IMG/VR virus record: IMGVR_UViG_2534681763_000010
Span: 1 to 6,119 of that record
Reading direction: 5' to 3' (one strand)
DNA: 6,119 bases
Source of the DNA: a virus
Lineage: Duplodnaviria; Heunggongvirae; Uroviricota; Caudoviricetes
Below, piece by piece: positions 2,220 to 6,119 of the stretch. The notes under the pieces are model-generated. The model was given only the letters and a program-made list of their open reading frames with translations, had not been told where the DNA came from and ran no database searches. The position numbers and the translations under genes are program-made. Positions within the stretch are counted from its first letter, which is position 1. Each line of letters starts with the position of its first letter.

Positions 2220-2747
2220 TTATTGCGGCATTTCCGGCCATTCAGGATTTGCAGGATCCACACGACTGATCAGAACGCTGTAGCGTTCCCATGATTCCAG
2301 TCGGCTACGCTCCTCATCTGTTGCCATGTTCAGTCTGACCGCGCGCTCCAGCGGCAAAATCACGGATTCAGCATCTGCAAGAAGTCTGGCTTTCCGAATT
2401 TCTGCCTGCTGCTGTAATTCCTCTGCCGTATAAATGCGTTTAATCACTTTGCCGTCCTTAAACATCCAGTTCCCTGAAATGTCCGCCCGTCGGTTAGCAG
2501 TAATATCCGCCACTTCAACAACACTTAATCCATCCGGTCTGATAGCTGTCACATCCTTTTCCACATAGTGGATGATATTATCTTTGTCGTACGCTATTTT
2601 TATCGTGTCATCAGCAAAATACTTTTGTTCTTCGTACCAGTTCTTACCATCTTCTGAAAAAAACCAGACAACATCAAAGTCCTTTGTCAATTGATATTGT
2701 TCAACCGTTTTTGGATTACCCACCGTTATATTTATCAAATGCTGCAT
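2220..2747 (-). CDS. G: Tail fibre assembly chaperone (P2 gpG-like)
   Basis: 175-aa ORF; N-terminus MQHL.N...GNPKT.EQYQLTK and C-terminus [44 protein letters not shown] match my memory of P2 gpG. The ATG at 2747 lies 3 nt downstream of the H stop codon, typical operon packing. Confidence 0.9.
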
Positions 2748-2750
2748 AAA

Positions 2751-5069
2751 TTATACCTGCGCCACGTTATACCATGTCCCGTTAATGTATTTCTGCACCG
2801 GTCTGTAATATATGCCACCAATGTTATCGGCAGAGTTTGAGCCGGTATCCTGAACAATAATGCCGGAATATACACACCCGGACGGTGCCTGATGTGTCCA
2901 TGTCATGCCATTGTTCGCAGGTTTGTATGTGGCAGCACCACCAAGCCGGATATCCCGGACATAGCGTGAATCAAAGTTGCCATAGTTAGATGGTGATACC
3001 TGCCCGTTAACAGCAAAAGTGATGCTGTTATCTGTATTTCTCTGACTGTAAAAATGCCAGCCTGCATCATCACCTAATTCAGCCACCACCGGACGACTTG
3101 AGTTTCCCCACAAATTGAATGCGGCTTCCTTCGTGGATGTATTACTGCTGCTGACCGTGAATTTTTTCCCGCTACCGGCACGTACTTTGGTACTTGAGAC
3201 AATATCACCAGTAACATTCAGGCCATGCCCCATTGATACAGCACCCGTGGCATCATTTATAATCAGCGGTCTTAAATTATTATAACTGCCTAATCTGTCA
3301 CCTGATTTAGTCAACATAAAATAAGTGCTGCTGCCATCATTCCTGATAAAGAAACCATAATTGCCATAAGCAATGCGCAGACCATTAGCACTGAGTGATG
3401 TAATCTCACCTCTTGAACGGAGACCATAAGCGGAGCTGAGTGATAATTCTTCCTGAGCATCAGTATTACCAGTCGCCCAGCGAACTACCCCGCCCTGTAC
3501 TGTTTCATGCCAGATAGTGTCTCCTTCTCCACCACGAAACTTTCTGAGATATTTTTTGCCGCCTCTGGTGCCTGAACATAAGGCCGTAGACATATAGGCA
3601 TTCTGGCTTCCGCCATCCTGATTAATCGTTCCGGTCATTGCGTCGCCCTGACGATTCCAGTCACGACGCCAGCCGGGGGAGTAGCCGTCCCCATGATTTA
3701 TGTAAGTGAATTGCGCGCTGGTTGTACCGCCACCGCTTGATGTTGTCGGCGTGGTCACTCGGATAGTGATTGCAGATTTAGTTCCCATGACCTCGACGAC
3801 ACAACCAGCCAGGTGGATATCACCACATCCGGTATCCGTAATGATTTTGTTATTTGCATATGACCAGGAGCCTTTGCACATCCAGTACGGATGATTAAAT
3901 GCACCACGGGAATCCAGCCATTCAATAAACTGAGCGGTTGTCCAGTTTCCGGCTTCAGTGCTCAAAGCGCCGCTATAAGCACGACAGGCACCGATATTTT
4001 TCGTGAAGGTATCCTTTCCCGGAATATCCGCACCGTTCTGATCTTTCTGAAGACGTTTTTCAGCATTGTCATAGGCAGACTTCACCGCTTTTGATGTTGC
4101 GGCCAGCGTTTCAGAATCACTGTTGGTGGCGCTACTGAGCTGAACAAGACCTTTCCGCGCCGTGGTGGCGTCCTGTGCAGTGTATTTCCCGTTAGCAAGG
4201 TCATACGCTGTCTTAACCGCCTTTGGCGTTGCCGCAAGCGTTTCAGAATCGCTGTTGGTGGCGCTACTGAGCTGGACAAGACCTTTTCGCGCTGTGGTGG
4301 CGTCCTGTGCAGTGTATTTCCCGTTAGCAAGGTCATATGCTGCCTTTACCGCTTTTGGTGTTGCGGCGAGCGTTTCAGACGTGCTGTTGGTGGCGCTACT
4401 GAGCTGGACAAGGCCTTTTCGCGCTGTGGTGGCATCCTGCGCAGTGTATTTCCCGTTAGCAAGATCATACGCGGCCTTTACCGCTTTCGGCGTTGCGGCC
4501 AGTGTTTCAGACGTGCTGTTGGTCGCATTGCTTAACTGAGTAAAACCTTTTGCGGTCAGCGAGGCGTCCGGGTGACGTCGTGACTGTTCATGCTCTGCAA
4601 TTTTGTCATCAACGTAATCCTGCGTCGCCATCACCGTTGTGGTGTCAATGGTCAGCGCCACTGAGGCCACACTGCTGACGATGATGACCATGCGACAGGT
4701 CTGCGAACGCCCTGAGCCTTCGGCAAGAGCTGGCTTATAACTTTCGGCCATGTTCGCCACGGCAATTAATGTTCCCGCATCATCGTACAGGCCAAGCTCA
4801 CGCATCCAGAAACCGCCCACCTCCGGCGGAATAACCAGCTCTGCGATAATATAATTACTGTTTCGTTTGTCCTGGCTGATTTTGTTCAGCGCATGTCGCC
4901 AGACTTCATGGATAAGCCCGGTCTGTCCGGCATTCGGGACAGGCAATTTACCACCGCCATCCCCGACGGCCATCGTGGTAATGTTGACCTTCCGCCCTCC
5001 CGGCGCGGTTGCCGCTGCCAGCTTTGCTGCACCGGCAGTGGTGATAACGGTTCTGAATTTTGTGCTCAT
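2751..5069 (-). CDS. H: Tail fibre protein (P2 gpH-like), mosaic: conserved N-terminal baseplate-attachment region, expanded 44-aa repeat shaft, divergent central region, P2-like C-terminus
   Basis: 772-aa ORF with GAGGA 5 nt upstream of the ATG at 5069. The N-terminal approx. 170 aa (MSTKFRTVITTAGAAKLAAA...ATQDYVDDKIAEHEQSRRHPDA) and the C-terminal approx. 138 aa (...AGWHFYSQRNTDNS...PVQKYINGTWYNVAQV) resemble P2 H as I recall it. It is longer than P2 H (about 669 aa from memory). Confidence 0.9.
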   Translation of the reverse strand: MSTKFRTVITTAGAAKLAAATAPGGRKVNITTMAVGDGGGKLPVPNAGQTGLIHEVWRHALNKISQDKRNSNYIIAELVIPPEVGGFWMRELGLYDDAGTLIAVANMAESYKPALAEGSGRSQTCRMVIIVSSVASVALTIDTTTVMATQDYVDDKIAEHEQSRRHPDASLTAKGFTQLSNATNSTSETLAATPKAVKAAYDLANGKYTAQDATTARKGLVQLSSATNSTSETLAATPKAVKAAYDLANGKYTAQDATTARKGLVQLSSATNSDSETLAATPKAVKTAYDLANGKYTAQDATTARKGLVQLSSATNSDSETLAATSKAVKSAYDNAEKRLQKDQNGADIPGKDTFTKNIGACRAYSGALSTEAGNWTTAQFIEWLDSRGAFNHPYWMCKGSWSYANNKIITDTGCGDIHLAGCVVEVMGTKSAITIRVTTPTTSSGGGTTSAQFTYINHGDGYSPGWRRDWNRQGDAMTGTINQDGGSQNAYMSTALCSGTRGGKKYLRKFRGGEGDTIWHETVQGGVVRWATGNTDAQEELSLSSAYGLRSRGEITSLSANGLRIAYGNYGFFIRNDGSSTYFMLTKSGDRLGSYNNLRPLIINDATGAVSMGHGLNVTGDIVSSTKVRAGSGKKFTVSSSNTSTKEAAFNLWGNSSRPVVAELGDDAGWHFYSQRNTDNSITFAVNGQVSPSNYGNFDSRYVRDIRLGGAATYKPANNGMTWTHQAPSGCVYSGIIVQDTGSNSADNIGGIYYRPVQKYINGTWYNVAQV
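4040..4560. repeat. Tandem 132-bp (44-codon) in-frame repeats inside tail-fibre gene H: three near-full copies plus diverged partial copies at each end
   Basis: The motif GCTACTGAGCTG(A/G)ACAAG recurs at 4131, 4263 and 4395, an exact 132-nt period. Encoded units read TARKGLVQLSSATNS(T/D)SETLAATPKAVK(A/T)AYDLANGKYTAQDAT. The repeats also generate the spurious overlapping track ORFs 4082..4336 (-) and 4162..4539 (+). Confidence 0.85.
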
Positions 5070-5079
5070 TATTCCTCAC

Positions 5080-5610
5080 TTATCCGGGATAAACCGTAAT
5101 TACATCGCCGTCGTAAGCCACACCACCGGCGAACAGGTAGCCGGGAATGTCCCGGGTAATGTTCAGGCCAATAAGGTGACGGCTTGCAGGTTTGGCATCA
5201 GCAATCAGCCGTTCCATTTCCTGATACATTGCCTCTGTGATGCCACTTTCCAGTACACCAATATCAAGCCGGAAGGTGCCGGGCGGGTCACTGTTTTCCC
5301 ACCACTCCGTCACGTTGATGAGATAGCCGAGCGGCTCCACCACACGCCGGATTGCACCTATAGTGCCTTTATGACAGTGGATGAAATACGCATCGCGGAT
5401 AACGGCGCGTTTTGTCGCTTCCGGCCACTTCTCATCCCACCTGTCGACCGAAAACGCCCACGCCAGCCACGGCAGCAAATTTGCCGGACAGGTATCCGGG
5501 TTCCACAGCTCACGAATACTGACCGGCGTTTTTTCAATTTCCGCACAGGCTTTTGCGGCGGCGACCTCAAGCGGTGATGAGCCGGTCGGCAGCAGTCGCG
5601 AATCACTCAT
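5080..5610 (-). CDS. I: Baseplate/tail protein I (P2 gpI-like)
   Basis: 176-aa ORF directly upstream of H on the coding strand; the sequence (MSDSRLLPTGSSPLEVAAAKACAEIEK...) agrees with my memory of P2 gpI. Its ATG at 5610 overlaps the J stop codon by 8 nt (ATGAGTGA), indicating translational coupling. Confidence 0.9.
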   Translation of the reverse strand: MSDSRLLPTGSSPLEVAAAKACAEIEKTPVSIRELWNPDTCPANLLPWLAWAFSVDRWDEKWPEATKRAVIRDAYFIHCHKGTIGAIRRVVEPLGYLINVTEWWENSDPPGTFRLDIGVLESGITEAMYQEMERLIADAKPASRHLIGLNITRDIPGYLFAGGVAYDGDVITVYPG

Positions 5611-6119
5611 CCGAGCCTCCGGTCACGACGCGGTATTCGGTACAGAAAGACGCCTGCGTACTGTTGAGCACGATGTCGGCCAGTGGTGCAGCCAGTTCGA
5701 CACGCTGCACACCTTCCACATGCAAAGCGGCATAAATGGCAGACAGACGGATGTCACGCCCCAGCCGGTGCTGTGCCGTGATATACGCTTCCAGTTTTTT
5801 CACGGCGGCAGCGCGGATGGGTTCGCTTTCGGGACCAGGGTAAAGGTAAAGCGTGGCGTTTATCTGGTATTCAACAATGGCGGCAGACTGCACGGTCACG
5901 CGGTCGGCCACCGGCCTGACGTCCTCGCCATTAAGGGCGTTACGCACCGCCGCCAGCAGATCTTCGGATGCCACACCGTTATTTTCACGTGACAGCACGG
6001 AGATGGTGACGCAGGCCGGAGACGGACTGGTGACAGAGATATCCGCGACACGCCCGTCGGCACTGCGACCATGATACTGATAGGCTCCCACCGACCCGGC
6101 GACGCTTAAGCCTTCAAAC
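5603..6119 (-). CDS. J: Baseplate assembly protein J (P2 gpJ-like), C-terminal part (gene continues past the window end)
   Basis: The track ORF starts at an internal GTG at 6091, but the frame stays open to the window edge; codons 6118..6092 read FEGLSVAGS, continuous with VGAYQYHGRSADGRVADISVTSP..., which matches P2 gpJ as I recall it. Stop TGA at 5605..5603. Confidence 0.9.
   Translation of the reverse strand, partial: FEGLSVAGSVGAYQYHGRSADGRVADISVTSPSPACVTISVLSRENNGVASEDLLAAVRNALNGEDVRPVADRVTVQSAAIVEYQINATLYLYPGPESEPIRAAAVKKLEAYITAQHRLGRDIRLSAIYAALHVEGVQRVELAAPLADIVLNSTQASFCTEYRVVTGGSDE

Follow-up and report, generated by a model that had tools for sequence, protein, structure and literature searches.

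Why does a tail fibre gene that opens almost exactly like gene H of phage P2 lose that likeness in its middle, and what would this middle be for? The question arises in the 6,119-nt stretch of viral DNA analysed here (the window), which holds the J-I-H-G tail region of a P2-like prophage, all of its genes on the minus strand. The order J-I-H-G-(cargo)-FI is that of P2, and J, I and the 5′ part of H are 97% identical to P2 in nucleotide sequence. An earlier note on this DNA regarded the centre of H as a chimeric block, distinct in composition from both ends, and took it for the shuffled receptor-recognition part of the fibre, ahead of a C-terminus that stays P2-like. The mosaicism of H is real, and it is an ordinary, long-known exchange of tail fibre segments in an allele already annotated in many genomes. 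The 1992 P2 H/G sequence paper of Haggard-Ljungquist reportedly described such exchange among P2, Mu, P1, lambda-like and T-even phages, and it is said to have been textbook matter since. At a probability of roughly 85%, we read H as a working, intact tail fibre gene of a P2-like prophage, built via repeated segment exchange.

Gene H and its modules

Gene H has I on one side and a Caudo_TAP chaperone gene on the other, with the Z/fun slot and FI further downstream; 3′ of G the 6.1-kb window holds only an S1-peptidase ORF and FI, the latter starting near position 233. The features, in window positions, are these.

5080-5610, minus strand: gene I, baseplate (Tail_P2_I, 6e-56)
2751..5069, minus strand: gene H, tail fibre; intact ORF of 772 aa, stop codon included (ORF list)
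4569..5069, minus strand: Module 1, aa 1-167, P2-type N-terminal baseplate-attachment domain (PF12571, GC 55.3%)
4050..4568, minus strand: Module 2, aa 168-340, four 44-aa Phage_fiber_2 repeats (132-nt tandem array)
4021..4049, minus strand: junction motif KDQNGADIPG, aa 341-350, gene nt 1021-1049; left breakpoint of the foreign block
3660..4049, minus strand: Module 3, aa 341-470, Mu/P1 S′-type globular domain (matches to PDB 8ju3 and P1 Sv′)
3435..3659, minus strand: Module 4, aa 471-545, poorly characterised linker block without a Pfam family (few close matches)
3195..3434, minus strand: Module 5, aa 546-625, gp34-type trimerisation module (PF21446; lowest GC in H)
2985..3194, minus strand: Module 6, aa 626-695, P2 H-like distal shaft (72.7% nucleotide identity to P2 H)
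2941..2984, minus strand: crossover zone, aa 696-710 (SNYGNFDSRYVRDIRLG), gene nt 2086-2129, where the matches of two relatives overlap
2751..2984, minus strand: Module 7, aa 696-772, fibre tip of P22H1/fiAA91-ss type, not P2 type (nucleotide identity, tip alignment)
2220..2747, minus strand: gene G, tail fibre assembly chaperone, 175 aa (Caudo_TAP, 1.9e-33)

Two Pfam families give H the make-up of a P2-type gpH, namely PF12571 (Phage_tail_fib) over aa 1-151 (E 4.4e-58; 196 bits against a cut-off of 23) and, after this N-terminal domain, PF03406 (Phage_fiber_2) in four stretches (8.4e-77); the third is Gp34_trimer (5.3e-25). Module 1 is 96-100% identical in nucleotide sequence to P2, vB_YpM_115, 12474III and fiAA91-ss, the values for P2 lying at 96-99%. 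The repeats behind it carry the SETLAAT motif at aa 187, 231, 275 and 319, and TRF resolves them as 3.5 copies of period 132 with 89% matches (4068-4523); the 44-aa unit occurs four times in the window, three times in fiAA91-ss and twice in P2. Differences between H and its relatives fall mostly on third codon positions (91 of 136 against Yp41, 69 of 91 against P1, with the same trend for all relatives), and the frame of H is therefore the selected one, under purifying selection. The same bias, against four relatives, marks the plus-strand ORFs within H (3706-3894, 3891-4094 and 4162-4539; 62-125 aa) as spurious, and an Rfam scan of the window returned no RNA family on either strand. From homology alone, the product is predicted to trimerise into a fibre and to bind the host receptor.

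Sources of the middle and points of exchange

The block singled out by the earlier note, 3150-4040 on the minus strand, corresponds to H aa 344-640, and both peptides that it quoted are present. Its impression that the middle does not resemble P2 holds well: by MAFFT and BLASTP, H is ~98% identical to P2 H over aa 1-243 (94.8% over aa 1-251) and 57% over aa 621-772, with only scattered identities from aa 244 to ~630. In 100-nt windows of the gene, identity to P2 is 93-99% over nt 1-700, 18-47% over nt 701-1900 and 70-73% over nt 1901-2100. P2 thus shares with the window the locus and gene order, the repeat family, the N-terminal 243 aa, aa 626-709 and the last 17 aa of H and a G that is 75% identical, but its own middle (P2 H aa ~244-525) is unrelated, it has two repeats rather than four and its tip (GTRVVQLMARGGRYEKAGH...) is of another type.

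The likeness to other enterobacterial fibres, which the earlier note had suggested, is borne out by matches to Mu S′ (8ju3), Mu S (5yvq), T4 gp34 (4uxe), P1 Sv′ and gp37 of T4-like phages, and these show that the middle is itself a mosaic of an S′-type domain, a linker and a gp34/Mu S trimerisation module. Residues 176-332 of the Mu S/S′ fusion chain 8ju3 match H aa 333-487 (domain E 1.8e-69), which establishes homology to Sv′; the G(-) fibre Mu S′ is represented at aa 329-486 with 67.5% amino acid identity to Mu Sv′ (BLASTP), and aa 341-470 are the first Sv′ domain of Mu and P1, with 82% amino acid identity to P1 Sv′ (tblastn) and nucleotide identities of 77% to P1, 73% to Mu and 84% to Yp41, the matches either ending at nt 1411 or continuing beyond it. 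Past aa 470 the Mu and P1 sequences differ, being unrelated to the window until the last ~70 aa. Module 4 has close matches only in H of the vB_YpM_115 type (99-100% nucleotide identity) and in Yp41 Sv′ (84%). From aa ~478 on, H is 49-58% identical in amino acids to gp37-like distal fibre proteins of Serratia, Enterobacter and Klebsiella T4-like phages (aa 478-638), and aa 541-604 belong to PF21446 (Gp34_trimer; 88.6 bits against a cut-off of 27). Module 5 is 53-61% identical to the C-terminal region of T4 gp34 (4uxe, 5nxh); its structure matches are Mu S 5yvq and T4 gp34 4uxe/5nxh at aa 550-624 (E 1e-17), with T4 gp34 chains at E ~1e-24. H aa 598-697 also match T4 gp34, and Module 6, which is 72.7% identical to P2 H in nucleotide sequence over aa 635-703, also matches a short tail fibre, 9cuy. 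Only a module of ~80-160 aa is shared with T4, set in a P2-type fibre that differs from the T4 system in having neither a gp35/gp36 hinge partner nor a T4-type needle tip. An AF2 monomer model of aa 336-639 is of low confidence overall (mean pLDDT 56), with 10-residue-block means of 73-88 over model residues 31-100 (H aa ~366-435) and values below 50 over aa 470-560, leaving only the S′-type domain and the gp34-type module usable. A Foldseek search of this model against the PDB returned fibre structures only, adding nothing to the sequence matches, and no enzyme-like fold.

Domain shuffling, as the earlier note surmised, is what the identity profiles show, since identity to different relatives flips between ~100% and 11-50% within single 100-nt windows (most low windows are under 40%, near background). 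Breakpoints at gene nt 1021, 1411, ~1862 and 2086-2129 are common to P1, Mu and the 49-kb invertase-carrying Yersinia phage vB_YpM_41 (Yp41), those at nt 1021 and 1411 being seen in P1, Mu, Yp41, 12474III and fiAA91-ss. DNA similarity to the Sv′ of P1, Mu and Yp41 begins at nt 1021 in all three, and similarity to the Sc part of Mu stops at nt 1049. H of 12474III and fiAA91-ss is 97-100% identical to the window through nt 1100, 98% and 88% identical at nt 1101-1200 and ~75% identical to nt 1400, then 11-12% at nt 1401-1500. The Peduovirus H of vB_YpM_115/vB_YpM_117 matches at 97.8% over nt 1-2129 (for vB_YpM_115, 96-100% up to nt 2100, then 48-51%), with 99% protein identity in the flagged region, and P22H1 runs at 73-82% over nt 1-600, 37-55% over nt 601-2100 and 95-99% thereafter, its 97.1% match starting at nt 2086. 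The SNYGNFDSRYVRDIRLG peptide in which these two matches overlap is conserved in every fibre compared. H would accordingly owe its make-up to fibre segments exchanged repeatedly, by homology, at short linker motifs that are conserved, the right junction being a putative crossover inside SNYGNFDSRYVRDIRLG between an H of the vB_YpM_115 type and a tip+G cassette of the P22H1 type; pairwise identities alone cannot give the direction and order of the transfers.

Could the middle simply have diverged faster, by point mutation under diversifying selection and with no exchange at all? Receptor-binding proteins do evolve fast, and the GC12 gap between the parts is small (0.507 against 0.53-0.55). Yet identity decays stepwise and not gradually, from ~100% to 11-12% in the one 100-nt window seen in 12474III and fiAA91-ss; separate segments match separate relatives at 97-100%; and P1, Mu and Yp41, which are unrelated phages, have fibre genes that match the DNA of the middle at 73-84%, all from the same nucleotide on. 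The data contradict this explanation, and we give it next to no weight.

A mis-join during assembly, spanning the 132-nt repeats or linking two prophages, would also produce a chimeric look, and there are grounds to consider it: H contains the 3.5-copy repeat, many database copies are fragments labelled 'partial' and some genomes carry two P2-like prophages. Against this, the full-length H+G arrangement occurs in 25 listed complete E. coli genomes, out of 143 that cover at least 80% of the allele; the arrangement up to nt 2129 recurs in several complete phage genomes; and the ORF is intact, all of which makes an artefact exceedingly improbable. In the 25 listed of the 143 genomes, the allele aligns with 97.7-99.5% nucleotide identity and 100% coverage, collinearly, to annotated tail fibre genes, which is one half of what the earlier note would have counted against a chimera, the other being an even base composition. 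Among complete E. coli genomes the middle is found in 186, tip+G in 589 and both in 143; because of these counts, the middle and tip+G can be said to assort independently.

Base composition and the absent inversion site

The compositional part of the earlier note survives in a different shape. GC is raised at the 5′ end, as claimed (55.3% over aa 1-167 and 54.3% over aa 168-340), but the centre lies at 48.3% (3150-4040) and not at 42-45%; nor is the centre distinct from both ends, as the 3′ end (aa 635-772), with 47.1% GC, does not differ from it significantly (p = 0.84), against p = 0.005 (chi-square) for the centre versus the 5′ part. There is a single GC step near aa 340 and no central GC island. 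The step, a difference of 0.069 at aa 340/341, was reached in 1 of 2000 codon shuffles. Module 5 (GC 41.2%, GC3 32.5%) forms a marginal trough, as a 240-nt window equally low arose in 112 of the 2000 shuffles; within gene G, GC is 38.6% in the N-terminal and 50.6% in the C-terminal half. The lower GC of the 3′ two-thirds of H might reflect amino acid and codon constraints of fibre domains, not foreign origin, and the marginality of the aa 546-625 trough agrees with this. We nevertheless consider it distinctly unlikely, as the drop is mostly one of third positions, GC3 going from 0.53-0.59 in the 5′ part to 0.433 in the flagged region and 0.325 in the gp34-type module, and as the step that shuffling so rarely reproduces falls on a sequence breakpoint.

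In Mu and P1, DNA similarity to H starts just inside the invertible segments, and it is natural to ask whether the window retains any trace of inversion. Unlike these phages it has no gix or cix, no invertase and no inverted alternative Sv/U fibre cassette within its 6.1 kb. Its best match to the 26-bp Mu gix has 10 mismatches (Mu itself 0, Yp41 2-4, P1 5-7), and a core-pattern scan for a gix/cix/hix-type site found nothing in H; with neither the core pattern nor the full 26-bp site matched, a relic inversion site was rejected. In P2, the unrelated middle retains a 23/26 match to Mu gix that the window does not have. A close cassette is that of vB_YpM_41, whose 365-aa Sv′ aligns to H aa 340-772 at 65.7% amino acid identity, window-type tip included, and at 84% nucleotide identity over gene nt 1021-1862; it differs in standing within a gix-bounded invertible segment adjoining a hin invertase, in lacking ~70 aa of the distal shaft of the window and in a chaperone, U′, whose C-terminal half is 44% identical.

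The NGADIP motif stands on both sides of gix in Mu and in a single copy in the window. The left junction has the look of a product of deletion, from one NGADIP motif to the other across gix in a Mu-type S′ gene, which would fuse an Sc-like repeat region directly to an Sv′-type cassette with loss of the inversion site; this is one of several routes to the same junction. As a tentative possibility, and a rather unlikely one, the part of H from aa 341 on may be an S′ cassette frozen in place, captured by such a deletion from an invertible segment of the Mu/P1/Yp41 type by a P2-type phage, and the S′-type domain might still be a second, lateral binding site beside the tip.

Tip, chaperone and receptor recognition

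That the C-terminus stays P2-like is true of aa ~626-709 (73% nucleotide identity) and of the last 17 aa; the tip between them, aa 710-755, is of another type. Over aa 696-772 nucleotide identity is 97-99% to P22H1/fiAA91-ss, 44-54% to P2 and 48-51% to vB_YpM_115, whose tip (aa 710-755; 48-51%) and G (75% of amino acids), like those of vB_YpM_117, are of P2 type. Tip and whole G form one cassette, with DNA identity of 97.1% to P22H1, 94.5% to fiAA91-ss and ~75% to P2. G is a Tfa chaperone by PF02413 (Caudo_TAP; 115.9 bits against 22.1), by its length of ~175 aa and by its place directly 3′ of the fibre gene; it is 94.9% identical in amino acids to P22H1 G, 74.9% to P2 G and 73% to Mu U and P1 U. 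Published structure work (PMC9608196, citing North 2019) describes Tfa as having a variable N-terminal domain that binds the fibre and a conserved C-terminal domain that drives trimerisation, and the tip and G alignments reproduce this division, with an N-terminal domain matched to the tip: in its N-terminal half, the one that binds the fibre, G shares 96-98% of its residues with G of P22H1/fiAA91-ss and 67% with that of P2. Across the G/U group this half is 96-98% identical to the window beside a tip of the same type and 66-69% beside a P2-type tip, against 79-94% throughout for the C-terminal half. The co-variation is imperfect, Yp41 U′ being 69% identical to the N-terminal half of G despite a window-type Sv′ tip.

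Is the central block then the receptor determinant, such that its swap retargets the phage and the conserved P2-like C-terminus is there only for chaperone G? No part of P2-like H varies more than the middle, which is different in each of P2, L-413C, P22H1 and the window, the S′-type domain is compact and globular in the model, and the specificity of L-413C has been attributed to its GpH, in which the first ~207 and the last ~137 aa are P2-like and enclose a middle made of pieces of other enterobacterial phage fibres (PMC7460101). L-413C thus shows the same mosaic pattern, with an N-terminus 84% identical to that of the window, but its 913-aa middle is unrelated, which rejects it as a source, and its tip is of P2 type. 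On balance we find a receptor role for the central block doubtful. The solved structures related to the middle are those of shaft, knob and trimerisation modules; a middle 99% identical in amino acids carries a P2-type tip in the Yersinia phage vB_YpM_115, where the window has a different tip; tip and G are an exchange cassette of their own; and the part of Mu S bound by the chaperone is its C-terminal end. The middle of H is more likely shaft than receptor-binding tip, and the earlier note was probably mistaken on this point. From end to end, the fibre has a P2-type N-terminus that docks on the baseplate, the four 44-aa repeats, S′-type domain, linker, gp34-type module, P2-like shaft and tip; by analogy with its homologues, the middle would make up part of the shaft, knobs included, and determine how long the fibre is and what geometry it takes, and the chaperone-bound C-terminal tip would carry receptor specificity.

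The practical gain is a precise map of modules and breakpoints. Fusions are tolerated at the natural NGADIP and SNYGNFDSRYVRDIRLG junctions, which could be reused to retarget P2 particles or tailocins, and the map indicates that the tip must be moved along with G. Should the part from aa 341 on indeed be a frozen S′ cassette, a switchable host-range module would have been converted into a fixed one.

Locus layout, P2-like frame and base composition

All genes of the window lie on the minus strand, at the tail-fibre end of a P2-like (Peduovirus) prophage and in the P2 order J-I-H-G-fun(Z)-FI, and window 4344-6118 shares 97% DNA identity with P2.

Genes of the window, with coordinates and strand
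5603-6091, minus: J, partial
5080-5610, minus: I (Tail_P2_I, 6e-56)
2751-5069, minus: H, tail fibre, 772 aa
2220-2747, minus: G, tail fibre assembly chaperone (Caudo_TAP, 1.9e-33)
834-1880, minus: cargo ORF of low GC, 348 aa
near 233, minus: start of FI

H is an intact fibre gene, in which a P2 domain for baseplate attachment is followed by a shaft of repeats, imported shaft/knob modules and a tip that forms a cassette with the chaperone gene. Changes relative to four relatives fall mostly at third codon positions of its frame, and H is under purifying selection; plus-strand ORFs inside it, set against this same concentration of substitutions, were rejected as noise. Over aa 1-243, H is ~98% identical to P2 H (669 aa), while from aa 244 to ~630 identities are only scattered because the P2 middle differs; resemblance to P2 returns over aa 630-710 and gives way to divergence at aa 710-755, and the final 17 aa are near-identical. 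In 100-nt windows counted from the H start, identity to P2 is 93-99% at nt 1-700, 18-47% at nt 701-1900, 70-73% at nt 1901-2100 and 44-54% in the tip. These comparisons bear out an earlier note, made from the sequence alone, that had picked out window 3150-4040 (H aa 344-640, where the peptides it quoted are located) as unlike the middle of P2 H.

The compositional argument of that note was overstated. The stretch has 48.3% GC rather than the proposed 42-45%, with 55.3% and 54.3% in the 5' modules and 47.1% at the 3' end (aa 635-772), so that the middle is distinct from the 5' part (p = 0.005) but not, as had been claimed, from both ends (p = 0.84 against the 3' end). A fall in GC as large as that across aa 340/341 (0.069) occurred in 1/2000 codon shuffles, and the deepest trough, at the gp34-type module (aa 546-625; 41.2% GC, GC3 32.5%), is only marginally unusual (112/2000 shuffles). 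The profile of H is one step at the first breakpoint, with no central island.

The cargo ORF (834-1880; GC 36.8%, GC3 28.7%) occupies the place of fun(Z) between G and FI, a slot that in relatives holds DarT/macro, Lit, DUF3800, HNH or SMEK genes. It matches Pfam Trypsin_2 (1.8e-17) and, weakly and in its N-terminal part, CTD12 of ABC-3C systems (0.0039); PADLOC matches are confined to the protease domains of RT-Protease_XI, LmuA and HamA. The ORF may be a single-gene anti-phage defence or a moron. Some E. coli carry two P2-like prophages, e.g., NZ_CP025916.1 (2062580-2068629 and 4159450-4162299), with the S1-peptidase cargo in one and the H allele (99.5%) in the other; none of the complete E. 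coli genomes was found to pair the two as the window does.

Mosaic map and make-up of the middle

BLASTN of H-G against eight loci gave discrete boundaries, common to several relatives.

BLASTN matches to H-G (gene nt from the H start, identity)
P2: 1-726, 96.7%
12474III: 1-1411, 94.0%
fiAA91-ss: 1-876, 664-1411, then 2059-2850; 95.8%, 88.2%, 94.5%
vB_YpM_115: 1-2129, 97.8%
P22H1: 2086-2850, 97.1%
Yp41 Sv' (variable fibre part): 1021-1862, 83.8%
P1 Sv': 1021-1411, 76.7%
Mu Sv': 1021-1411, 72.5%

In 12474III and fiAA91-ss, identity falls from ~100% to 11-12% inside one 100-nt window (nt 1401-1500). An extra breakpoint lies inside the S'-type module (aa 341-470), near gene nt ~1200 (window ~3870, aa ~400): both phages are 99-100% identical at nt 1001-1100, 98% and 88% respectively at nt 1101-1200, and ~75% from there to nt 1411. 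Upstream, a 132-nt tandem array (window 4068-4523; 3.5 copies, 89% matches) encodes 44-aa fibre repeats, present in two copies in P2, three in fiAA91-ss and four in the window, vB_YpM_115 and 12474III; such differences among close relatives suggest unequal crossing-over that would alter shaft length.

Sequence searches against solved structures divided the middle into parts. The fibre chain 8ju3, a fusion of Mu S and S', aligns through its residues 176-332 with H aa 333-487 (domain E 1.8e-69). Mu S itself (5yvq) aligns with aa 546-771 and the C-terminal region of T4 gp34 (4uxe, 5nxh) with aa 550-624, and Pfam Gp34_trimer lies on aa 541-604 (88.6 bits, cut-off 27). By tblastn of 50,697 phage records, P1 Sv' is 82% identical over aa 344-474, from aa ~478 onward gp37-like distal fibre proteins of T4-like Serratia/Enterobacter/Klebsiella phages reach 49-58%, and over aa ~550-617 gp34 proteins of T4-like type, in their hundreds, reach 53-61%. 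The likeness to other enterobacterial phage tail fibres, suggested in the earlier note, is thereby confirmed. The model that AF2 gave for aa 336-639 as a monomer has low confidence as a whole (pLDDT 56), with one compact domain of alpha/beta type (model residues 31-100, H aa ~366-435) predicted confidently at block-mean pLDDT 73-88; Foldseek of this model against the PDB returned fibre structures only (8ju3, 5yvq, T4 gp34) and no enzyme-like fold.

The two junctions, the tip and chaperone G

In Mu, the constant fibre part Sc ends ...ARLAKDRNGADIPNKPLFIQNLGLQE, the inversion crossover site gix encodes IQNLGLQE, and the variable part of S' continues TVNQASGALQQNQNGADIPGKDTFTKNIGACRAYS; the NGADIP motif thus flanks gix on both sides. 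The left junction of the window reads ...AEKRLQKDQNGADIPGKDTFTKNIGACRAYS, with a single NGADIP motif and no gix site, the best match in the window to the 26-bp gix having 10 mismatches (Mu 0; Yp41 2-4; reference P2 H 3). In Yersinia phage vB_YpM_41 (Yp41), a cassette homologous to H directly follows a gix-like site, on a segment flanked by 55-nt inverted repeats and adjoining a hin invertase. The left junction may have arisen by recombination between the two NGADIP copies, or by an equivalent exchange, which would have joined a repeat region of Sc type to a cassette of Sv' type.

Two observations concern these phages themselves. vB_YpM_41 (OR545054.1, 49 kb, no taxonomy below 'Viruses') carries its hin-type invertase and invertible fibre segment at L006:3320-7062, with gix-like cores in the inverted repeats and a silent Sv' cassette nearly collinear with H aa 340-772 of the window. 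Reference P2 H holds a 23/26 match to Mu gix, TTATCGAATATCTCGGTTTACAGGAA (L001:5624-5649; P2 record ~13857-13882), which encodes ...YLGLQETVNRAGNAVQK, just as the Sc/Sv junction of Mu does, and P2 has no invertase there; such a relic is absent from H of the window.

At the right junction, the match of vB_YpM_115 type runs to nt 2129 and that of P22H1 type starts at nt 2086, both boundaries lying within the universally conserved peptide SNYGNFDSRYVRDIRLG. From that point on, the DNA of the tip (GGAATYKPANNGMTWTHQAPSGCVYSG...) and of the entire G gene matches P22H1, P24C9, 10W, 11W and others at 97% identity, against ~75% for P2. The proposal that the C-terminus working with G has remained P2-like thus holds only in part: aa 630-710 and the last 17 aa are P2-like, but the tip is not, and the role that the note gave to the C-terminus needs correcting. 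In its N-terminal half, G shares 96-98% identity with the G of same-tip phages and 66-69% with that of P2-type-tip phages; in its C-terminal half, identity is 79-94% throughout the U/G group. This pattern fits the Tfa model as outlined in PMC9608196 on North et al. (2019), which assigns fibre binding to a variable N-terminal domain and the driving of trimerisation to a conserved, helical one at the C-terminus. GC is 38.6% in the N-terminal half (2484-2747) and 50.6% in the C-terminal half (2220-2483), the low-GC half being the variable, fibre-binding one that co-varies with the H tip.

Distribution and probable roles of the modules

Among 5,426 complete E. coli genomes (presence being coverage of 80% or more), the middle block (window 2985-4049) is present in 186, the tip and G cassette in 589 and the whole of H and G in 143; the modules thus assort independently, and the allele is common, not new. 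The best H-G matches, which carry the annotation 'tail fiber protein', have 99.5% identity at 100% coverage. A protein database search returned 1,145 relatives of H (E at most 1e-5); the 120 listed come in their great majority from E. coli and otherwise from Shigella, Salmonella, Yersinia and Photorhabdus, and show many differing Pfam combinations around the same modules. Fragments of this family named 'sugar ABC transporter permease' (P0008) and 'short-chain dehydrogenase' (P0064) in public records look like annotation errors.

H is a real mosaic, as the earlier note sensed, and an ordinary, already documented one. A 1992 study of P2 H and G reportedly described the same phenomenon. In L-413C, GpH is described in PMC7460101 as P2-like in its N-terminal 207 and C-terminal 137 aa, with a middle that is a mosaic of other enterobacterial phage fibres, a pattern like that of H, although the two middles are unrelated; the modular, exchangeable nature of receptor-binding proteins is stated as a general principle in PMC12143355. 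Every feature of a P2-type gpH that was looked for is present in H. H has one domain in common with Mu/P1 S' and does not qualify as an invertible-segment system, since the window contains no crossover site, invertase or inverted cassette.

The P2 receptor is the LPS core. We infer that the middle would fix fibre length and geometry and supply trimerisation, and that the tip, folded with G, would serve receptor recognition. One and the same middle carries two different tips, in vB_YpM_115 and in the window, which argues against the middle as the main specificity determinant. That the H block is a 'frozen' S' cassette whose globular domain keeps a binding role seems to us rather improbable; it is the sole mildly novel reading and, if true, would be of modest interest.
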